A stretch of DNA of 11,304 nucleotides from a plasmid, in NCBI RefSeq assembly GCF_057098645.1, contig NZ_JBXSPU010000004.1; one strand, written 5' to 3'. The notes under the pieces were generated by a model. It worked only from the letters and a program-made list of their open reading frames with translations, was not told where the DNA came from and did no database searches. Both the position numbers and the translations under genes were made by a program. Below, piece by piece: positions 190 through 11,303 of the stretch; positions within the stretch are counted from its first letter, which is position 1; every line of letters begins with the position of its first letter.

Positions 190-300
190 ACATAAGTAAG
201 CCAGTATACACTCCGCTATCGCTACGTGACTGGGTCATGGCTGCGCCCCGACACCCGCTAAAACCCGCTGACGCGCCCTGACGAGCTTGTCTGCTGGCGA
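190..300. other. bom / oriT-like nick region of ColE1-type plasmids
   Basis: taagccagtatacactccgctatcgctacgtgactgggtcatggctgcgccccgacacccgc matches the pBR322 bom segment as I recall it; the nic-type motif TATACTGGCTTA is on the minus strand at about 197-209. Confidence 0.55.
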
Positions 301-341: not shown

Positions 342-536
342 TTATGGTTCCGTGCCGTACTGCGCTTCAAAGTGTGTCTGTATGCTGTTACCGAGTTCTT
401 CCGCCAGTTCGTGCAGTCGTTCGCACATGGCGGCCTGTTCGTCTGCATCCAGTGCATCCAGTTTTTCGAGCAACGTCAGGCTCTGGCTTTTGATAAATCG
501 CGCCATGTTGAGCGCGGTCTGCTGCTGTTTGTTCAC
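342..536 (-). CDS. rop: Rop/Rom, RNA I-RNA II pairing modulator
   Basis: 64-aa ORF MNKQQQTALNMARFIKSQSLTLLEKLDALDADEQA... aligns along its length with the 63-aa ColE1/pMB1 Rop (MTKQEKTALNMARFIRSQTLTLLEKLNELDADEQA...); it sits at the expected place beside bom. Confidence 0.9.
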   Translation of the reverse strand: MNKQQQTALNMARFIKSQSLTLLEKLDALDADEQAAMCERLHELAEELGNSIQTHFEAQYGTEP

Positions 537-756
537 GTTCTCCCTTCTCCGTTACTGGTGTTTACGTCCGGCTGTGCGTCACCTGGTCATCACGCTAGGT
601 GACGTCACTGAAAATTATCACACAAGCCCCGTCGTGTGTGGGCTGCGCGACATTAACACCCCGTGACGCTTATTTTTTGCTGAATATGTGCGCGATTTTC
701 TGTCTGCGTTGTGTGCAGTTGTCGTCATAAACATGAACGTTCCGCCGGTTCCTGAT

Positions 757-791
757 GTGCGTCACTTTGACGTTTTGACAAAGTGACGCAC
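757..791. repeat. Perfect 13-bp inverted repeat with 9-bp spacer (operator-like palindrome)
   Basis: gtgcgtcactttg-acgttttga-caaagtgacgcac read directly; contains TTGACG and TTGACA hexamers. Related GTGACG palindromes at 575-582 and 599-608 (gtgacgtcac). Confidence 0.45.
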
Positions 792-1158
792 GGGAGGTGC
801 TTGCGCAAACCCGCGAATAACGGCGTTTACCGCGTGATTTTTTTACATCTGACAACGTGACCCGGCGTGATGGCCAGTTCTGGCCAGAGACGTTCGCGGG
901 GTGTCGGGGCGCAGCCATGACCGGGTGGCGTTTGTCCGGTCGTGTGTGCGCGGTCCGACAAATGCACATCCTGTCCCGTCCCGTTTTTCGCTCGGTTTTT
1001 ATTGATTACCGGACAGACGAACCCGGATTGCCATATTGCGAAAATCACGTTAAAACGATTACGAGCGTGCAGTTGGGCTGATATATCAACAGTCATGCCA
1101 ATATGTATTAACCCGACAGGCCGCTCTTTTTAATTCCAATAAAAATATAAATACGAGT

Positions 1159-1353
1159 ATGAATCAGGACAAAGCAATTTATTTAGAAAATAAATATTTT
1201 TCACCCGCAAACGAAGCTGTCAGACTGGAGCGTGAAGGCGATTACATTGGAGCATGGAAAAAATGGAATGATGCGCTTCATTATGCCAAAGGAGAAAATA
1301 TAGGTTGGTGTATAGCCAGAGCTGAATATTGTAAAAAGACAGGCCGGTTTTAA
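1159..1353 (+). CDS. Hypothetical small protein (64 aa), possibly a helical TPR-like fold
   Basis: ORF with AT-rich upstream region and A/T-rich codon usage unlike the flanking GC-rich DNA; only a weak Shine-Dalgarno. No family recognised. Confidence 0.35.
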   Translation: MNQDKAIYLENKYFSPANEAVRLEREGDYIGAWKKWNDALHYAKGENIGWCIARAEYCKKTGRF

Positions 1354-1367
1354 TTCTGGCGGGGTTT

Positions 1368-1386
1368 CAAAGGGGCGCCCCCTTTG
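1368..1386. other. GC-rich stem-loop just after the 64-aa ORF stop
   Basis: caaagggg-cgc-cccctttg, an 8-bp perfect stem with 3-nt loop; no following T-tract, so not a canonical intrinsic terminator. Confidence 0.3.
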
Positions 1387-1489
1387 GCACCTCGACGTAT
1401 CAAAATGCACCAGCATTTTGTATACAGTCGGTCATGTGCCTCCAGGATTTACCATCAAAAACGCCCCTGTAGTTAATCCTGAATCAAGG

Positions 1490-1584
1490 TATAACTAAGA
1501 TATAATTAGCGTATAACTAAGGCATAACTAAAGTATAACTAACTTGGTGTGCATATAATTAACATATAACTAATGTATAACTAA
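1490..1584 (+). repeat. Array of about eight direct repeats of TATAACTAA phased at 11 bp (iteron-like)
   Basis: Copies start at 1490, 1501 (tataattag), 1512, 1523 (cataactaa), 1534, 1554 (tataattaa), 1565 and 1576; one degenerate slot near 1545. Confidence 0.7.
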
Positions 1585-1770
1585 CGGTTCACCAACGGAT
1601 CGCATGTAGTAGACGCTACATAAAAAATCCTGAAATGGAGGATTCGTCATAAAGAGATTCTTTTTTTTAGCGTTCTGATGCAGAACAGGGCAAACACCGC
1701 AAAAATGATGAAAAACTGATTAACCATACTGTCTGTATTCTGAATGAATTACGAAGCATAGCGATAAATT

Positions 1771-1797
1771 AAAAAATCCCCCTGGATTACAGGGGGA
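1771..1797 (-). terminator. Intrinsic-terminator-like hairpin plus U-tract (minus strand)
   Basis: Plus strand aaaaaa-tccccctg-gatta-caggggga: 8-bp perfect stem; on the minus strand the hairpin is followed by TTTTTT. Confidence 0.4.
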
Positions 1798-1904
1798 AGC
1801 TATCAGAGTTTGAGTAATGAGAAATATTATTTTGGAGAGAGCATCACAAATGCGCTCTTTTCCAATCTGCCGTAACCATCGGCAAAAGACAATCAGGACA
1901 GGCG

Positions 1905-1931
1905 AAAAAATCCCCCTATATGGCAAGGGGG
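1905..1931 (-). terminator. Intrinsic-terminator-like hairpin plus U-tract (minus strand)
   Basis: Plus strand aaaaaa-t-ccccct-atatggca-aggggg: 6-bp GC stem; minus-strand T6 follows. Confidence 0.4.
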
Positions 1932-2028
1932 TGTCAATGAGGACATGGCAATTGTGAGTTTTGTGTGTGTTTTATGTGTTGCAGTTTGCAACGTCAGAAA
2001 TTTGCCGTAGTTCGTCATGAGAGACAAC

Positions 2029-2070
2029 AAAAAAATCCCCCGTGACTGGTGGAGGCCAGGGCAAGGGGGG
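2029..2070 (-). terminator. Intrinsic-terminator-like imperfect hairpin plus U-tract (minus strand)
   Basis: Plus strand aaaaaaa-tcccccgtgactgg...ccagggcaagggggg; CCCCC/GGGGG and CTGG/CCAG arms; minus-strand T7 follows. Confidence 0.3.
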
Positions 2071-2279
2071 TAGCAAATGCCTGAATAATTTTCGTAGTTT
2101 TGATATACCCATCGTTGCAACCGCAACGGGATGAATTTGCCGCAGTTGTGCGCGAAAAACAATCCTGATTCCGGGACAGGATGTGTAATCGTATAACCGC
2201 GCACGCACGGCTATGCGATTACCACCTGGTCAGGGCTTTGCCCCGACACCCTCGACACCGTTCCCGCGATACGATAGAA

Positions 2280-2483
2280 GGGGTTCTAAGCCGGAAACCC
2301 AGAAAATTCCGTCACCAAAGCTAGTAATCGACAGATTTGCATGACGTTGAATAGGTGACGGGTTATGTGACGATATTTGGTGTCGAAATCGTTGTTTCAG
2401 TGACAGTCACTCAATCGATCGTTTGTGTGACACTCCCGTAAAAACTTGTCGCAGAAAAATCCAGGTTTCCGGCCGGGAACCCC
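2280..2483. mobile_element. 204-bp miniature element with Tn3-family-like terminal inverted repeats and 5-bp target duplication (TIME-like, non-autonomous)
   Basis: Left end GGGGTTCTAAGCCGGAAACCCAGAAAATTCCG; right end read inward GGGGTTCCCGGCCGGAAACCTGGATTTTTCTGCG. Both start GGGGTTC like the transposon IRs at 7516 and 11303. Flanked by identical TAGAA at 2275-2279 and 2484-2488. No ORF inside. Confidence 0.6.
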
Positions 2484-2571
2484 TAGAACATCAGGGCGCG
2501 TTTCCGGGTAAACGCATGTTAATGACCGGGAATTCATTGATCAGGGACCGGAGACGCGCTACAAAACTCCT

Positions 2572-2713
2572 GCGCGTTTCTGGCATCAACTGACCATGGG
2601 GATGGTTTGGCAGTAGCAGCAAGCGCCAGAAACGCGCTCAAAACGCCTCTGGCGGCAAAACCATTGCCCGATGCAAAAAAGTGCGTTACAAAGCCTCTGA
2701 GCGCGTTTCTGGC
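2572..2713. repeat. Nested inverted copies of GCGCGTTTCTGGC forming long-range hairpins, followed by a T-tract
   Basis: gcgcgtttctggc at 2572-2584 and 2701-2713; its reverse complement at 2624-2636. The pair 2624-2639 / 2698-2713 is a perfect 16-bp inverted repeat. T6 at 2716-2721. The 15-mer CTGAGCGCGTTTCTG recurs at 3466-3480 inside cer. Confidence 0.5.
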
Positions 2714-3097
2714 GTCTTTTTTGTTGCTGTGTCGCTATACTCGTTGTCAGATTCGCGCTCAATCATCACTGATTAATCTGCGCTTATCCTTCGACTGATC
2801 ACGCTGGTATTTTTTGACAACCGGTTCCCATGAAAACGCCAGACGGGAACCGTCATCCGCACCCTCTGACATGCTGGGGATTAAAAATCCCTGTGCCGCA
2901 CAGCCGGCGTTGCATAAAATTCCGCTCTGCGATGAGTATTGTTTAATCAAAAATCCCCTCGTTTTCTCCAGAAAAACGCGAGTCTGTTCTCATGCCCCGG
3001 ATGCCCACACCCCACGCAAAACCAACTTTTTTCTGATTTGCTTTTTAAATCATGTTGTTATGGTTTGAAAAATATATTTTCTTATTCAGATTTATAC

Positions 3098-3270
3098 AAA
3101 AGCGAGTCGTCGGCGACTACTGGATGATTCGGCAACGAGTCGTCGGTGATTTATCGATGACTCAACACACTGTCTCCCTGGTGTTCAGAAAAAGCGAGTC
3201 GCCAGAGAGTCGCGAGGAAAAATACTGGATGACTCGCTGATGGCTCCCGGGGTGAATCGCTCACGACTCG
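3098..3270. repeat. Cluster of GAGTCG / CGACTC-containing direct and inverted repeats
   Basis: (G/A)CGAGTCGTCGG at 3101-3113 and 3134-3146; ACTGGATGA(T/C)TCG at 3118-3130 and 3224-3236; GAGTCGCC and GAGTCGCG at 3196-3213; CGACTCG at 3264-3270. Confidence 0.5.
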
Positions 3271-3299
3271 TCTGTAACTACTGTCTGATTTCTTCTCAT

Positions 3300-3516
3300 C
3301 AGGGCTGAAAACGTCCGAAAATGCGCCTTATGGGAATCAGGCGCGCCCAAACCGATCGCCATTCAGTTTCATGCATAGTCATGCAGTGCCATGAAAACAA
3401 TCCTGACGTATTTTTCCGGTTTACCCGGGGGGAAAACATCTCTTTTTGCGGTTTTTGCGTCAGAATCGCGCTGAGCGCGTTTCTGCGGTGCGTACAATTA
3501 AGGGATTATGGTAAAT
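3300..3516 (+). other. cer-type multimer resolution site (accessory sequences plus XerC/XerD core)
   Basis: Core at 3487-3516 reads GGTGCGTACAA-TTAAGGGA-TTATGGTAAAT, which is the ColE1 cer XerC arm, 8-bp central region and XerD arm as I recall them. About 190 bp of upstream accessory sequence includes an ARG-box-like segment near 3360-3385. Left boundary approximate. Confidence 0.8.
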
Positions 3517-4873: not shown

Positions 4874-6346
4874 ATGGATAAAGTCACTGATAATTCTCCA
4901 GATGTGGAGAGCACAGAATCTACTGAGGGGTCATTCCCAACCGTTGGGGTTGATACTGGCGATACGATTACAGCGACGCTTGCAACTGGAACTGAAAATG
5001 TTGGTGGAGGCGGTGGAGCATTTGGTGGGGCCAGTGAAAGTTCTGCTGCGATACATGCAACCGCTAAATGGTCTACCGCGCAGTTGAAAAAACATCAGGC
5101 TGAACAGGCTGCCCGTGCTGCTGCGGCTGAGGCAGCATTGGCAAAAGCGAAATCTCAGCGTGATGCCCTGACTCAACGTCTCAAAGATATTGTTAATGAC
5201 GCTTTACGTGCTAATGCCGCCCGTAGTCCATCAGTAACTGACCTTGCTCATGCCAATAATATGGCAATGCAGGCAGAGGCTGAGCGTTTGCGCCTTGCGA
5301 AGGCAGAGCAAAAAGCCCGTGAAGAAGCTGAAGCAGCAGAAAAAGCGCTCCGGGAAGCAGAACGCCAACGTGATGAGATTGCCCGCCAACAGGCTGAAAC
5401 CGAGCATTTGTTAGCTATGGCTGAGGCTGCTGAGGCTGAAAAAAATCGACAGGATTCTCTTGATGAAGAGCATCGGGCTGTGGAAGTGGCGGAGAAGAAT
5501 CTGGCTGAGGCTAAAGCTGAACTGGCGAAGGCTGAAAGCGATGTACAGAGTAAGCAAGCGATTGTTTCCAGAGTTGCAGGGGAGCTTGAAAACGCTCAAA
5601 AAAGTGTTGATGTGAAGGTTACCGGATTTCCTGGATGGCGTGATGTTCAGAAAAAACTAGAGAGACAATTGCAGGATAAGAAGAATGAATATTCGTCAGT
5701 GACAAATGCTCTTAATTCTGCTGTTAGCATTAGAGATGCTAAAAAAACAGAAGTTCAGAATGCTGAGACAAAATTAAAAGAAGCTCAGGATGCGCTTGAG
5801 AAGAGTCAGGTAAAAGATTCTGTTGATACTATGGTTGGGTTTTATCAATATATAACCGAACAATATGGAGAAAAATACGCAAGAATTGCTCAGGATTTAG
5901 CGGAAAAGTCTAAAGGAAAGAAAATTAAAGGTGTTGATGAAGCTTTAGCTGCATTTGAACAGTATAAAAATGTACTGGATAAGAAATTCAGTAAGGTTGA
6001 TAGGGATGCTATTTTTAATTCTTTAGAGTCTGTTAATTATGATGAGTTATCTAAGAATTTAACGAAGATATCAAAGTCGCTTAAAATCACTAGTCGAGTA
6101 TCTTTTCTATATGATGTTGGTTCTGATTTTAAAAATGCAATAGAAACTGGTAACTGGCGTCCTTTATTTGTCACGCTGGAGAAAAGTGCGGTAGATGTAG
6201 GTGTTGCAAAAATTGTGGCATTAATGTTTAGTTTTATTGTCGGCGTGCCTCTTGGTTTCTGGGGGATTGCTATTATCACAGGTATTGTTTCTTCTTACAT
6301 AGGGGATGATGAGTTGAACAAGCTTAATGAATTGCTAGGTATTTAA
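4874..6346 (+). CDS. cta: Pore-forming colicin of the E1 family, colicin 10-like (490 aa)
   Basis: Gly-rich N-terminal region, then [20 protein letters not shown]...[13 protein letters not shown]...LAHANN...ERLRLAKAE matching colicin E1 as I recall it. C-terminal channel domain ends [21 protein letters not shown]...LGI (E1: GIWGIAIVTGILCSYI...EVLGI). The length and the TonB-box-like DTITATL at residues 30-36 fit colicin 10; the symbol is tentative. Confidence 0.9.
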
Positions 6347-6633
6347 TTTCTCTTTAGAGAGTAATATATGAAACTTGGCAATCCTACTGGGATTGCCATT
6401 AATAAATAAAACAATGCAGATAACTTGCATAAATACCAGGGCTCTTTTTTAAATTTTGTATTTTCTTTGATATATCTAGATATGGTTAATTTAGAGTATG
6501 GATATAGCAATACATGTATTGACGATATAAAGACAAATAACAAAGGAGTGTTATCATGGTCGTTAAATATTAAAATAAGAATCCAGGGTATAAGTGATTC
6601 AGGTAAATTATGTAGGTAGTATTTTAAATGCAT
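6343..6633 (-). CDS. cti: Colicin immunity protein, E1-type integral membrane protein (96 aa)
   Basis: Convergent with the colicin gene and overlapping its stop. [10 protein letters not shown]...[22 protein letters not shown]...[14 protein letters not shown] parallels the colicin E1 Imm protein (MSLRYYIKNI...[22 protein letters not shown]...LVLAIPFGLLGLFI). Confidence 0.85.
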
Positions 6634-6662
6634 AAGTATTTTTACTTTTGTTGGAGAGGGAT

Positions 6663-6794
6663 ATGAAAATAATAATTTTTCTAATTACAATATTATTCTT
6701 GTCAGGATGTCAAGCAAACTATATTCGTGATGTACAAGGAGGAACCGTTGCGCCATCTTCGTCTTCTGAACTGACGGGGATCGCGGTTCAGTAG
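6663..6794 (+). CDS. ctl: Colicin lysis (bacteriocin release) lipoprotein, 43 aa
   Basis: Not in the ORF track. Translates to [43 protein letters not shown] with lipobox LSGC; the mature part is essentially identical to the ColE1 Kil mature sequence as I recall it. GGAGAGGG Shine-Dalgarno upstream. Confidence 0.85.
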
Positions 6795-6802
6795 AAAAGA
6801 TC

Positions 6803-6828
6803 AAAGGATCTCTTGAGATCCTTTTTTT
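6803..6828 (+). terminator. Intrinsic terminator after the lysis gene, overlapping the RNA II promoter -35
   Basis: aaaggatct-cttg-agatccttt: 9-bp perfect stem followed by TTTTTTT; same arrangement as in pMB1/ColE1. Confidence 0.7.
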
Positions 6829-6841
6829 CTGCGCGTAATCT
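6813..6841 (+). promoter_or_regulatory. RNA II (replication primer) promoter
   Basis: TTGAGA at 6813-6818 and TAATCT at 6836-6841 with 17-bp spacing, positionally equivalent to the pBR322 RNA II promoter. Confidence 0.55.
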
Positions 6842-6848
6842 GCTGCCT

Positions 6849-6957
6849 GTAAACGAAAAAACCGCCTGGGGAGGCGGTTTAGTCAAAGGTTAAGTCAGTT
6901 GGGGAACAGCTTAACCGGGTAACTGGCTTCAGCAGAGCGCAGATACCAAAAACTTGT
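6849..6957 (-). ncRNA. RNA I antisense copy-number regulator
   Basis: Antisense to the 5' ~110 nt of RNA II; its 5' end corresponds to the complement of cagataccaaaaacttgt (pBR322 RNA I begins ACAGTATTTGGTATCTG); three-stem-loop region. Ends approximate. Confidence 0.65.
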
Positions 6958-7478
6958 CCTTCTAGTGTAGTCAAAATCAGGCTGATACTTCAAGAACTCT
7001 GTTACTAACTTATAAATCTCGCTCTGCTAACCCGGTTACCAATGGCTGCTGCCAGTGGCGTTAAGTCGTGTCCTTTCCGGGTTGGACCCAAGAGAACAGT
7101 TACCGGAGAAGGCGCAGCAGTCGGGCTGAACGGGGGGTTCCTGCATACAGCCCGGCCCGGAGCGAACTGCCTAAGTCGCCCCGAGATACCAGAAGACGTG
7201 AGCTATGAGAAAGCGCCACGTGTCCCGCAAGGGAGAAAGGCGGAAAAGGTATCCGGCAATCGATATGGCGGGAACGTGGGGGCGCAGGAGGGAGCGATTC
7301 ACCGGAAACGGTGATGATCTTTAAGCCACGTCGGGTTTCGCCACCGCTGGCGGATTTCATGGTTGAGTCGGAAGACTCCCACAGATGCACCTAAAAAGTG
7401 TCTGTTTTGTGAAGTCCGTCAGGGGGGCGGAGCCTATGGAAAAAGCGCCTCCGGCGCGGCCTTTCGGGGTTTTCGTTT
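6849..7478 (+). ncRNA. RNA II primer precursor through the replication origin of a ColE1-type replicon
   Basis: Collinear with pBR322 RNA II/ori as recalled (ggtaactggcttcagcagagcgcagatacc..., gctatgagaaagcgccacg..., gtcaggggggcggagcctatggaaaaa..., ctcacatgttctttcc), but with many substitutions and an extra segment near 7330-7410. Ends approximate. Confidence 0.7.
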
Positions 7479-7515
7479 CTTGCTCACATGTTCTTTCCGG
7501 CGTTATCCCCTGATT

Positions 7516-7553
7516 GGGGTTCCGTGGGAATTTCTGCGATAACACCCGCTAAG
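7516..7553 (+). repeat. Left 38-bp terminal inverted repeat (IRL)
   Basis: GGGGTTCCGTGGGAATTTCTGCGATAACACCCGCTAAG. Confidence 0.85.
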
Positions 7554-7699
7554 CGATTCCTCCCTGACGGAAATCACTTGTTTTCCGTCAGGTCCTGCAG
7601 TTGAAGAAAATTGAATCCATAAATCTGTGATTTTTTGCGTGACAAACCCTGTCGGAATGAGAAACTGTACGGAAACTTCAATTTTAAGGTTTGTCGTAC
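7554..7699 (+). promoter_or_regulatory. res site (resolvase binding subsites) and tnpR promoter region
   Basis: 30-bp palindrome cctgacggaaa-tcacttgt-tttccgtcagg at 7563-7592, plus further TGTCGGAA / TGTACGGAA / TGTCGTACA half-sites at 7648-7700, between IRL and tnpR. Confidence 0.55.
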
Positions 7700-8323
7700 A
7701 TGTTGATTGGTTATATGCGGGTATCAAGCAATGATGAACGTCAGTCAGTTTCTTTGCAGCGTGATGCGTTGATTGCTGCTGGAGTGGATCCCCGGCATTT
7801 ACATCAGGATCATGCTTCAGGTGCTCGTGATAATCGCCCGGGACTTAAGTCCTGTCTCGCTGAACTTCGCGAAGGTGATGTACTGATAGTCTGGAAACTG
7901 GATCGACTTGGTCGTTCACTCTCACATTTGCTCCGAATTATTGAAGACCTGAAAATTCGTGGTATTGCTTTCCGATCATTGACTGAATCTATTGATACAA
8001 CAACGCCACACGGCTCGTTCCTCTTTAACCTTTTTGGCACGCTCGCGGAGTACGAAAGAACACTTATCACAGAACGCGTTAATGCTGGTCTGGCTGCTGC
8101 TCTCCGGCGGGGGAGAAAAGGCGGAAGGCCACCGGCGATAGATGCTGAAAAGGTTGATCAAATCCTCGCAGCTCTGGAAGGAGGTGCCAGTAAAGCGTCA
8201 GTATGTCGCGCATTCAGTGTGCCACGCTCAACGCTCACCGATACTCTACGACGAATTGGCTGGGCCGGACCTGGGGGGCGTAATCTGACAACGGATCAGA
8301 GCAATGTCATTTCTCGACTCTAA
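7700..8323 (+). CDS. tnpR: Serine recombinase (resolvase), Hin/Gin invertase-like
   Basis: MLIGYMRVSSNDERQ...RPGLK...GDVLIVWKLDRLGRS...GIAFRSLTESIDTTTP...GRKGGRPPA parallels Gin (MLIGYVRVSTNDQ...GDTLVVWKLDRLGRSM...GINFRSLTDSIDTSSP...GRIGGRPPK) as recalled. I place the start at ATG 7700 (AAGG about 10 nt upstream); the ORF track starts at an upstream TTG, 7691. Confidence 0.85.
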   Translation: MLIGYMRVSSNDERQSVSLQRDALIAAGVDPRHLHQDHASGARDNRPGLKSCLAELREGDVLIVWKLDRLGRSLSHLLRIIEDLKIRGIAFRSLTESIDTTTPHGSFLFNLFGTLAEYERTLITERVNAGLAAALRRGRKGGRPPAIDAEKVDQILAALEGGASKASVCRAFSVPRSTLTDTLRRIGWAGPGGRNLTTDQSNVISRL

Positions 8324-11270
8324 ATCGTACGATACGCTTTTTGGATTACCTGAACTTTATGAGGATGCACTTCCCCGGTTTTCGCTCTCCTGCGAGGATA
8401 TTGCATTCGCCAGAACTCATCGTCGATCTCATAACCGTCTGGGTTTTGCCATTCAGCTTGCACTTGTCCGTGATCTCGGTCGTACACTGCGTGCAGGAGA
8501 GATTCCCCCGGAGGCTGTTATCACCGTTGTTGCGGAACAACTGGATATTGACCCTGCTGTTTTTACACTTTACGCACAACGTGAGGAAACCCGCCGGGAA
8601 CATGCCCGCGAAATAGTTTCGGCTTTGGAGCTTCGTTCCGTCCGGAGTAGCGATTACAGAATGCTCATTATCGCGGCTACACGCGAAGCAGCAACCACCG
8701 AAAAAGGACTGCCGATCACCAGAGCAGTTATCAATAAGCTGAAGGACCAGAAGTTACTTGCCCCTGCTCCGGCACAACTCATCCGTCTGGCAATGGCGGG
8801 CCGGGCGGCTGCCCGTCGCCTTTCTTATCGGGAACTCATCAGGGATCTGAAACCTTCATCCATTAGCGCTCTCGAGCAGTTGCTTACCGAACGAGTCGGA
8901 GAAAAGAGCATTTTAGGCTGGATAGCTGAAGCGCCGGAAGGCGTGAAACTCAAGAATCTTAAGGGGTTAATTGCCAGGCTGGAGGTATTACGAACAGCGG
9001 CAATCTCCGATGAGCAACGTAAACGGATTCATGTAAACCGTTACGGTATTATTGCCCGGGATTCTCGCGTTTTACATGCGCGTGAAATACAACGAATGGC
9101 ATCCGAACGCTGTCATGCCACGCTGGTAGCCTTTGTTATTGAAAAGCAGGCAGCAATTACAGATCTGGCAATTGATATGTTCTGCAAATTGATTGGCAGC
9201 ACGAGGCGCAGAGCAGAGATAAGCCAGAAAGAGCGTCGTCTGAAAGCCGCTGAAGTACTTGAAGTCGTAGCTCAGGATCATATTAAGTTGGGACGGGCTC
9301 TCCTGGCAGCACGTGACGGTAATACTGATATTGAATCTGTAATAACAGCATCACTCGGCTGGGAAGGTTTGATTGCCAGTATGGAGGCTGCAGCTTCGGT
9401 GGCATCTTCCCATCACTGTTCTGAACTGGATGAACTTATCGGACGACAAAAATCATTACGTAAGCTTGGACGACTCATTTTCAGCGCTTTTTCTTTCAGA
9501 GCTTTTCGCCCGGATGATAGCGTTTTGTTGGCGATTGGGTATTTGCAGGCGTTCTATCATGGCCGAAAATTACCCAAACAAATTCCGCTCGATTTTATGT
9601 CCCATAAATGGCGACGTCGTGTCATCCATGGAGAAAATACCGATCTGCAGGCGTGGGAAGTCGCCGTATTCGTTCATTTGCGGGAACGCCTGAAAACAGG
9701 TGACATATGGGTTGATGGTAGTCGGGCCTGGCGTAGTTTTGAGGACTACCTTCTTCCTCACCATGTTTTCGGGCAGATGCGGGCAGAATCCCGGCTGGGA
9801 CTTGCCATTCCGGACAACTTTGCTGAATGGCGGGCTGAGCGAACCACCACACTCAACGCAAAACTGAAAGCGCTGGCAAAAGCTGCTTCGGAGAATGCCA
9901 TACCCGATGCAGAACTTTCCAGCAGAGGGTTGTCTGTGTCTCCGATTCGCGAAGAAGAGAGCGACAAAATTAAGGCTCTCAGCCGTAAACTCTACATGCT
10001 GGTACCACGCATCAGAATTACCAGTTTGCTGGCAGAAGTTCATAGCTGGACCAGTTTTCTTGATTGTTTCACCCATTATCGCACCGGGGAACAGGCGGAA
10101 GATGAAGCTGCACTTATGGCTGCGATCCTTGCCGATGCGACGAATGCGGGAGCAGAACGGATGGCGCAGAGTTCCCGGGGTGTCACCATTCACCAGATGA
10201 TGGTAATGATGGATCGTCATTTACGCACTGAAACCTATGCGTCTGCCACATCAGTTCTGGTCGATGCGCAACAGGAACATCCTTTTGCTGCTATATGGGG
10301 GGATGGGCATGTGTCATCCTCGGACGGGCAGTTTTTTCCTGCGGGTGGACGAGGAGAAGCCAGCCTCGAATATAACGCCAAATACGGCAAACGACCTGGC
10401 GCGTCGATTTATGGTTTTTTATCGAACCGTTTTGCATCCTTTTTTTCCAGAATGATTCAGGCCTCTGAAAGCGAGGCTCCCTACGTACTTGACGGCTTAC
10501 TTCATAACGAAAGTTCTGTGGTAATTCATGAGCATGCCACCGATACAGCCGGTGCGACTGAAACAACATTTTCAATGTTTCACTCTTTTGGTTACAGACT
10601 CATACCCCGTATTCGCAACCTCGGCAGTCGCAGGTTGTACGTTATTTCCCCCTCAGAGGAATATAAACCACTTGATGCCCTGATCGCCGGAAAGGCCAAA
10701 ATGGAAGTAATAGAACAGCACTGGGATGAAGTTCTGCGGCTTAAGGCCTCGATCGGCGCTGGTCTGGTACCACCATCGGTAATACTGAAAAAGCTGGCAG
10801 CATCTCCGAGACAAAACAGGCTCAATCTGGCCCTGCGTGAAATGGGACGTATTGAACGCTCAATTTTTATCTGTGACTGGTTGCTTGACACTCGGTTACG
10901 TCGCAGATCACACGCAATCCTCAACAAAGGCGAAAGCCGCCATGCACTTGCCCGCGCTATTTTTCTTCACCAACTGGGCGAATTCCGGAACAGGGCTGCC
11001 GAGACAATGGCTCACAGGGCATCGGGCCTCAACCTTGTTGTTAATGCAATAATTCTGTGGAACACGGTCTATCTCAGTCGGGCTGTTGATTACATTCGCA
11101 GCCAGGGGATCATTATACCGGAAGAGCTCTTGTCCAGTGTATCACCACTACCATGGGGTCATATCTCGCTCACTGGAGATTACCTGTGGAACGAAATTGA
11201 CCATCCCCTTGAACGATACAGGCCACTTCGTACTAATCGCTTCAATCCAAAGAACTTCACTTTTCCTTAG
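8304..11270 (+). CDS. tnpA: Tn3-family DDE transposase (988 aa)
   Basis: HNRLGFAIQLALVRDLG, NKGESRHALARAIFLHQLGEFRNR and NAIILWNTVYLSRAVDYIRSQG mirror Tn3 TnpA motifs (HNRLGIALQIGCVRFLG, NRGESRHAVARAICHGQKGEIRKR, NAVVLWNTIYMQAALDHLRAQG). Overlaps the tnpR 3' end by 20 nt. Confidence 0.93.
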   Translation: MSFLDSKSYDTLFGLPELYEDALPRFSLSCEDIAFARTHRRSHNRLGFAIQLALVRDLGRTLRAGEIPPEAVITVVAEQLDIDPAVFTLYAQREETRREHAREIVSALELRSVRSSDYRMLIIAATREAATTEKGLPITRAVINKLKDQKLLAPAPAQLIRLAMAGRAAARRLSYRELIRDLKPSSISALEQLLTERVGEKSILGWIAEAPEGVKLKNLKGLIARLEVLRTAAISDEQRKRIHVNRYGIIARDSRVLHAREIQRMASERCHATLVAFVIEKQAAITDLAIDMFCKLIGSTRRRAEISQKERRLKAAEVLEVVAQDHIKLGRALLAARDGNTDIESVITASLGWEGLIASMEAAASVASSHHCSELDELIGRQKSLRKLGRLIFSAFSFRAFRPDDSVLLAIGYLQAFYHGRKLPKQIPLDFMSHKWRRRVIHGENTDLQAWEVAVFVHLRERLKTGDIWVDGSRAWRSFEDYLLPHHVFGQMRAESRLGLAIPDNFAEWRAERTTTLNAKLKALAKAASENAIPDAELSSRGLSVSPIREEESDKIKALSRKLYMLVPRIRITSLLAEVHSWTSFLDCFTHYRTGEQAEDEAALMAAILADATNAGAERMAQSSRGVTIHQMMVMMDRHLRTETYASATSVLVDAQQEHPFAAIWGDGHVSSSDGQFFPAGGRGEASLEYNAKYGKRPGASIYGFLSNRFASFFSRMIQASESEAPYVLDGLLHNESSVVIHEHATDTAGATETTFSMFHSFGYRLIPRIRNLGSRRLYVISPSEEYKPLDALIAGKAKMEVIEQHWDEVLRLKASIGAGLVPPSVILKKLAASPRQNRLNLALREMGRIERSIFICDWLLDTRLRRRSHAILNKGESRHALARAIFLHQLGEFRNRAAETMAHRASGLNLVVNAIILWNTVYLSRAVDYIRSQGIIIPEELLSSVSPLPWGHISLTGDYLWNEIDHPLERYRPLRTNRFNPKNFTFP

Positions 11271-11303
11271 CGTGTGTTATCGCAGAAATGCCCACGGAAC
11301 CCC
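11266..11303 (-). repeat. Right 38-bp terminal inverted repeat (IRR)
   Basis: Reverse complement reads GGGGTTCCGTGGGCATTTCTGCGATAACACACGCTAAG; differs from IRL at positions 14 and 31. Confidence 0.85.

Follow-up and report, generated by a model that had tools for sequence, protein, structure and literature searches.

What is the segment near position 2,200 of a small Escherichia coli plasmid that so closely resembles the bom of ColE1-type plasmids, and which transfer system would recognise it? The window (the whole 11,304-bp stretch of DNA analysed here) is a rotated copy of a complete plasmid, NZ_CP062882.1, from E. coli O157:H16 isolated from pig faeces. This is a ColK-type, ColE1-like replicon, carrying rop as well as RNAI (6853-6954), which is the sole Rfam match in the whole plasmid at a permissive E-value. 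PLSDB classes the plasmid as ‘mobilizable’, although mobilisation genes are absent from its annotation. The original prediction placed a second, diverged bom-like segment at 2190-2260, and suggested that the two bom-like regions, together with a cer-like duplicate word, reflect the assembly of this plasmid from two ColE1-type ancestors. The landmarks outside the transfer region are as follows:

342-536, minus strand: rop, the end of the ColE1-like backbone (annotation and ORF; homology to a mob+ ColK plasmid covers 1-541)
3487-3516, plus strand: a single exact match to a motif that we take to be the cer XerC/D core; right edge of a module shared with IncF plasmids
4874-6346: cka, which with cki and the lysis gene constitutes the colicin K operon (annotation)
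7516-11303, plus strand: a Tn3-family transposon of 3,788 bp (resolvase and transposase, 38-bp inverted repeats, 5-bp target duplication TGATT)

A gene encoding an Exc2 lipoprotein is also annotated. The Tn3-family transposon, inserted immediately downstream of ori, has 99.9% identical copies, with the same transposase and resolvase accessions, on two more plasmids of the strain: a 44.7-kb IncI2-typed plasmid with annotated VirB-type T4SS genes (copy at 5543-9330) and a 77-kb IncF plasmid (copy at 16335-20122). The presence of such copies on three plasmids of one strain suggests recent within-strain transposition.

The resemblance to bom is real. The sequence acctggtcagggctttgccccgacaccc, located at 2224-2251, matches its partner actgggtcatggctgcgccccgacaccc at 229-256 (slightly offset from the 225-253 originally proposed) in 23 of 28 positions, and a self-repeat search identifies a direct pair, 233-256 and 2228-2251, of 88% identity. 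The 12-mer GGGTGTCGGGGC is found exactly three times in the window, at 245-256 (minus strand), 899-910 (plus strand) and 2240-2251 (minus strand), where 0.59 matches would be expected even with two mismatches permitted. Because this word is invariant in the oriTs of R64, IncK2/Z plasmids and pOP-I, its sharing is not a matter of chance. The third copy of the word, at 899, and an 80-nt inverted repeat (899-978 and 2172-2251, 75% identical) had not figured in the original prediction. The three copies fall within three orphan transfer origins, belonging to two families, on a single 11-kb plasmid:

197-256, minus strand: oriT-A, a ColE1/pMB1-type bom (word 256-233, nic core 208-197, nick 201|200)
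899-978, plus strand: oriT-B, a second, more divergent I-complex-type oriT, facing oriT-C
899-922, plus strand: word of oriT-B, in a ColE1-like spelling, GCGCAGCCATGACC
928-942 and 951-965, plus strand: arms of the large, imperfect inverted repeat of oriT-B
968-973, plus strand: nick core of oriT-B, ATCCTG, with the predicted nick at 973|974
2172-2251, minus strand: oriT-C, probably an orphan I-complex (IncK2/Z-like) oriT, as judged by homology, hairpins and nick motif
2247-2229, minus strand: small hairpin of oriT-C, within the shared word (GTCGGGGC AAA GCCCTGAC, an 8-bp inverted repeat)
2222-2208 and 2199-2185, minus strand: arms of the large, 15-bp inverted repeat of oriT-C, which ends 8 nt before the nick
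2182-2177, minus strand: nick core of oriT-C, ATCCTG, with the predicted nick at 2177|2176

The closest counterparts of oriT-C are found on conjugative plasmids of the I-complex. Its 80-nt core exhibits 97.5-98.8% identity (over 80-81 nt) to the oriTs of IncK2/Z plasmids; in pDETEC45, 80 of 81 positions are identical, and comparison with IncK2/Z yields 27 of 28 identical positions within the word and 51 of 54 after it. Among conjugative plasmids from E. coli, Salmonella and Shigella, approximately 1,900 also match the core. On these potential helpers, the counterpart of oriT-C lies 16 bp upstream of a nikA homologue (mobA), which is followed by a gene encoding a NikB-type relaxase, a position read in R64 (IncI1), in p50579417_2, pDETEC45 and CP060058 (all IncK2/Z), in pRM8426 (IncI-gamma/K1 plus FIB) and in pOP-I. 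The minimal oriT of R64 has been described as sitting immediately upstream of nikA and containing 8-bp and 17-bp repeats, the latter being part of the NikA site; among oriTs, conservation is seen in the 8-bp repeats, and variation with the cognate NikA in the 17-bp repeats (PMC3817090).

OriT-A, in comparison, is a bom of the expected ColE1 type. It lies between ori and rop, the same place as in the mob+ ColK relative NZ_CP010159.1, and matches the bom of that plasmid at all 28 positions of the word and at 91% thereafter. Its nic region, GTATACTGG|CTTA, is located at 208-197 (minus strand); the nick position within this core (201|200 here) is one that we take from the ColE1 MbeA literature (Varsaki et al. 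2003). The single TATACTGGCTTA in the window is also in oriT-A. ColE1/pMB1 bom sequences (MOBHEN/MOBP5 oriTs) have a 24-28-nt word, GGGTGTCGGGGC(G/A)(C/A)AGCC(A/C)TGACC, in common with oriT-C, but differ from it in nick core and nick position, lack a long inverted repeat, and show no likeness past the word.

These differences bear directly on the proposal that oriT-C is a second, diverged ColE1-type bom, the contribution of another ColE1-type ancestor and the substrate of an MbeA-type relaxase. Such an origin would account for the 23/28 identity within the word, on a ColE1-like replicon that already possesses a genuine bom at 197-256, but we consider it very unlikely. Over the 54 nt after the word, oriT-C and oriT-A are 52% identical, as against 48.7 ± 3.5% for shuffled sequences; the ColE1 nic core, TATACTGG|CTTA, is absent from 2150-2265 and found at 197-208 only; word and nick are separated by 76 nt, not 56 nt; and the segment is nearly identical (80/81) to an I-complex oriT. 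The likeness is thus limited to a shared word of ~28 nt, with no nic core, which refutes the original prediction on its own terms. Two ColE1-type ancestors are likewise unsupported: there is only one cer core, a search for a second cer site in the window found none, the surrounding module occurs on non-ColE1 replicons too, and the supposed cer duplicate is merely a 14-nt motif, TGAGCGCGTTTCTG. What stands is a second oriT-like segment, with a real shared word, that is not a ColE1-type bom.

This ‘cer-like duplicate word’, as the motif GAGCGCGTTTCTG(G), recurs at 2572-2583, 2624-2640, 2698-2714 and 3469-3482, the last copy abutting the cer core, and a perfect 17-nt inverted repeat (2624-2640 / 2698-2714) lies within these copies. 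Between mbeD and cer, mob+ ColK has a sequence to which positions 2683-2768 are 77% similar.

To judge from the sequences compared, the ‘bom-like’ word is a real element common to ColE1-type and I-complex oriTs. As GGGTGTCGGGG (245-256, 899-910, 2240-2251), it also nearly equals the nic region of CloDF13, quoted as 5'-GGGTG/GTCGGG-3' in a passage of PMC5935869 that cites Nunez & de la Cruz 2001. Given this near-identity, one short element may be present in three mechanistically different oriT families. A full-text literature search with the word sequence returned vector-derived primers only, and no paper on the sharing of this word between ColE1 and I-complex plasmids was found.

Both sets of inverted repeats that characterize R64-type oriTs are present in oriT-C. 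Its nick motif, CATCCTGT (CATCCTG|T; 2183-2176, minus strand), fits the MOBP nick consensus (C/T)ATCCTG(C/T) (PMC3772185) and is spaced as in R64 and IncK2/Z plasmids; the motif, at 2177-2185, falls just outside the interval flagged by the original prediction. When folded as single-stranded DNA, oriT-C forms two hairpins, as do the R64 and IncK2/Z oriTs (-21.3 kcal/mol, z -3.4), while oriT-A displays no I-type folding (z +0.3). Relative to IncK2/Z, the large repeat has lost one base pair through a single T-to-C substitution in its distal arm, at 2215, which leaves a C-A mismatch. Across 11 distinct I-type oriTs, compensatory changes are seen in 8 of the 15 pairs of the large repeat, and the small repeat is essentially invariant. 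In the large repeat of these variants, 93% of cells are paired (vs. 83% for shuffles and 28-46% for slid controls), a covariation signal that is supportive rather than decisive, as it comes from few, related sequences that were also the source of the structure. The contrast between a constant small repeat and a varying large one agrees with the description in PMC3817090. Overall, the oriTs of I-complex conjugative plasmids share with oriT-C the 80-nt architecture, the 8-bp repeat, the large repeat and the sequence CATCCTG|TCCCG. In contrast to oriT-C, which is detached, on an 11-kb ColE1-like plasmid, the helper oriTs are joined to nikA-nikB and T4SS genes.

No corresponding genes were detected in cis. 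A tblastn search of the whole plasmid identified no homologs of R64 or IncK2/Z NikA and NikB, nor of the ColK MobC, relaxase, MbeB or MbeD (best E-value 0.064), and Pfam found no RHH/NikA/MobC or relaxase domain in ten ORFs around both sites. With neither nikA nor nikB in cis, oriT-C counts as an orphan oriT rather than part of a complete MOB module, and its carrier resembles the pOriT plasmids of PMC10123127; the same paper treats R64-like and ColE1-like oriTs as separate families, and reports more than one oriT on ~12% of oriT-bearing E. coli plasmids (PMC10123127). The homology of oriT-C to helper plasmids starts at the word and stops five bases past the nick, with no nikA remnant, indicating that only the minimal oriT was captured.

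We consider it probable (roughly 85%) that 2172-2251 (minus strand) is an orphan I-complex oriT, closest to those of IncK2/Z plasmids, on a relaxase-less plasmid that would be mobilised in trans. This reading best explains the observed identity, architecture, helper position, lack of mob genes and recurrence on other plasmids; nicking, transfer and the identity of the helper are what it would predict. NikA, NikB and the MPF_I secretion system would all come from an I-complex helper: NikA would bind the large inverted repeat beside the nick, NikB would cut the minus strand after ATCCTG (2177|2176), and this strand would leave through the type IV secretion system of the helper, with 2176 downward leading. 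OriT-A would be usable when a co-resident ColE1-type plasmid provides Mbe proteins in trans; the bom of pBR322 is used with Mbe proteins supplied in this manner.

Small mob-less or relaxase-less plasmids mobilised via an R64-type oriT include pEC156 and the pCERC7/NTP16/pU302S group (PMC4743918, PMC9282650). R64drd11 mobilises pEC156, a ColE1-type plasmid without mob genes, by way of a 93-bp R64-type oriT, and mobilisation is lost once its F-type and R64-type oriT loci are removed together (PMC4743918); NTP16 is mobilised by R64 (PMC9282650). The present ColK-type plasmid differs from both, as members of the pCERC7 group encode their own NikA and carry a 20-bp repeat (PMC9282650), whereas it lacks NikA, and pEC156 combines an R64-type with an F-type oriT, whereas it combines two I-types with a ColE1-type.

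It could nonetheless be argued that oriT-C is a non-functional fossil, the scar of a cointegrate or recombination event with an I-complex plasmid, hitch-hiking on its present replicon and unused for transfer. Similarity of sequence is no guarantee of function, since pKPN2 possesses an R64-like oriT yet is not mobilised by R64drd11 (PMC4743918). Moreover, typing of the four co-resident plasmids of the host strain points to no I-complex helper (types IncI2, with an annotated VirB-type T4SS, IncF twice, and MPF_T); a scan of two of them, novel_2 and novel_3, found no I-type oriT, and the other two, novel_0 and novel_1, were judged from MOB-suite typing alone. One arm of the large repeat contains a mismatch. 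Conservation of oriT-C together with both flanks reaches 98-100% among ColK-type relatives, and on Col(MP18) and IncF plasmids it is 94-99%, but the flanks are as well conserved as the site in close relatives, so conservation alone is no proof of selection. A fossil would, however, hardly be expected to have been pared down to a minimal oriT running from the word to nick +5 while its functional motifs all stayed intact, to be kept on three replicon types and ~30 plasmids, and to resemble orphan oriTs that are active in experiments. We therefore regard this alternative as unlikely, and an orphan oriT served in trans as the preferred interpretation of oriT-C.

OriT-B is the more divergent of the two I-type sites. 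Over the 54 nt that follow the word, it shares 83% identity with the oriT of pOP-I, 72% with that of R64 and 67% with oriT-C, and among PLSDB conjugative plasmids it has no match above 85%. Its hairpin is weaker than that of oriT-C (z -1.95). The poorer hairpin and the lack of a close match on conjugative plasmids indicate that oriT-B may be weak or inactive. Directly 3' of its predicted nick, TCCCG is doubled (974-978 and 979-983; TCCCGTCCCG), while only one TCCCG is present in the oriT-B of pSTEC17_190-b, which is identical in all other respects; the duplication may represent a slippage or rejoining scar at nic.

The two I-complex-type oriTs, neither accompanied by a relaxase, are opposed, with their predicted nicks (973|974 on the plus strand, 2177|2176 on the minus strand) ~1.2 kb apart. 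The plus strand would be the one exported after nicking at 973|974, and as oriT-B and oriT-C point in opposite directions, the 1.2-kb segment 974-2176 would enter the recipient first from either origin. Being on opposite strands, initiation at one could not terminate at the other, which suggests a reason why such pairs occur inverted rather than direct. The same convergent layout is found in 8 relatives, among them pMS10860D, a ColpVC plasmid of 1,982 bp, which we take to be the length of pBuzz as well. In pMS10860D, which has an annotated rep gene, the two oriT copies are identical and ~270 bp apart, whereas those of the ColK-type plasmid are of different subtypes (75%), lie 1.2 kb apart with cargo between them, and are accompanied by a ColE1-type bom. 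The pBuzz-like arrangement comprises two inverse I-complex-type oriTs and no relaxase; two inverse oriTs are named for pBuzz itself in the title of Moran & Hall 2019 (Plasmid 101:10), as cited in PMC11389934. Published examples already exist of R64-type oriTs on mob-less Col plasmids and of convergent oriT pairs alike.

The segment that would lead transfer, and the sequence immediately beyond oriT-C, contain the following features:

974-2176: segment between the predicted nicks, with an ANR-family gene, 11-bp iterons and three ~130-bp repeats
1159-1353, plus strand: small gene of the ANR (AraC negative regulator) family, WP_001367294.1, without a Pfam match
about 1490-1600: approximately eight 11-bp iterons, TATAACTAAG-like, in two clusters ~31 bp apart
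1690-2085: three direct repeats of ~130 bp, diverged from one another, two with a minus-strand terminator-like hairpin at the end
2280-2483: a TIME, a Tn3-derived miniature element of 204 bp, with Tn3-type terminal inverted repeats

The ANR-family protein WP_001367294.1 is shared by most of the relatives checked and by the IncF plasmids, and its gene would be read from the strand sent by oriT-C. Only 33 PLSDB records, all from E. coli, contain the iteron block; it measures 186 nt here and ~132 nt in most relatives, and is missing in pFHI_NMBU_10_05. Its two clusters are laid out like the parC centromere of plasmid R1, and no par or rep gene was found near the iterons. A terminator scan called a G+C-rich hairpin followed by a T-run at 1797-1777 and at 1930-1912 (minus strand), and left uncalled a similar motif in the third ~130-bp repeat (~2055-2030). 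These repeats, which have no Rfam match, may encode small RNAs or act as single-strand signals within the segment predicted to enter first.

The TIME was correctly placed just beyond the bom-like segment by the original prediction. It is flanked by a 5-bp target duplication, TAGAA (2275-2279 / 2484-2488), and is absent in all seven relatives compared, in which the empty site contains a single TAGAA and the alignments resume with a 5-bp overlap. Its termini have only GGGGTTC in common with those of the resident Tn3-family transposon.

The oriT pair is part of a larger module. Homology to mob+ ColK extends over 1-541 (through rop) and begins again at 3465, ~22 bp ahead of the cer core; the intervening sequence, 542-3464, thus fills the slot of the mob operon. 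The module found in place of the ColK mob operon is also present on Col(MP18) and IncF plasmids, and a convergent pair of I-type nick motifs recurs, on three replicon types, among the relatives. It was identified in every relative retrieved: three plasmids of ColK type, two of Col(MP18) type, two IncF plasmids from STEC, a cryptic plasmid of 5.9 kb, and pMS10860D (ColpVC). At the position of oriT-B, at least four different recognition halves are found upstream of the nick, with the post-nick sequence constant; one of these halves contains a 20-bp perfect repeat, like that reported for pEC34A/pU302S-type oriTs (PMC9282650). In near-identical ColK relatives, flanks of 98-100% identity enclose a patch within 900-975 in which identity falls to 70-85%. 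In the relatives, TCCCGGAATCAGG is invariably linked to the C-type half, and the B position to the ANR side.

Two large IncF virulence plasmids from STEC, p_STEC435_1 (4950-7493 of the retrieved stretch) and pSTEC17_183-a (4950-7485), carry window positions 974-3516. The left edge of this shared stretch is the predicted nick of oriT-B (974), and its right edge is the last base of the cer core (3516). In these plasmids the left border is a nick motif that belongs to another I-type oriT, one whose perfect repeat is 20 bp long; upstream of it, neither an annotated nikA nor an ORF of ~110 amino acids was found, the sole candidate being an unannotated ORF of 155 amino acids. Such junctions would be consistent with exchange at both nic and cer.

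Junctions of this kind also invite the view that the main role of the convergent pair is in relaxase-dependent recombination or inversion, or in module exchange as a set of swap points, and not in transfer of this plasmid. The start of the IncF homology at the oriT-B nick and its end at the cer core, the variety of recognition halves preceding an identical post-nick sequence, and the divergent patch between near-identical flanks are all in keeping with such a role. However, exchange at nic is an expected by-product of the initiation and termination of transfer, rather than an alternative to it, and no inversion of the 974-2176 segment was seen in the relatives compared. We consider a role primarily in recombination extremely improbable, and retain transfer in trans as the likely function of oriT-C.

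It is conceivable, though on balance doubtful, that the oriT pair and the 1.2-kb segment it brackets constitute a portable mobilisation and establishment cassette, which moves among ColE1-like, Col(MP18) and IncF replicons via relaxase exchange at nic and Xer exchange at cer. In such a cassette, the oriT-B half, bounded by the invariant word and the nick motif, would be swappable for helper specificity, and the word would perhaps be read by a shared factor.

The presence of three orphan transfer origins, from two families, explains how a plasmid lacking a relaxase comes to be classed as ‘mobilizable’. With these origins, the spread of the plasmid should be governed by its companions in the cell: the two I-type origins would need a helper of the IncK/Z/B/O/I1 type, and the bom a ColE1-type mob+ plasmid. 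The junctions at nic and cer, and a divergent patch limited to the recognition half of oriT-B, provide examples of how small plasmids might change helpers.
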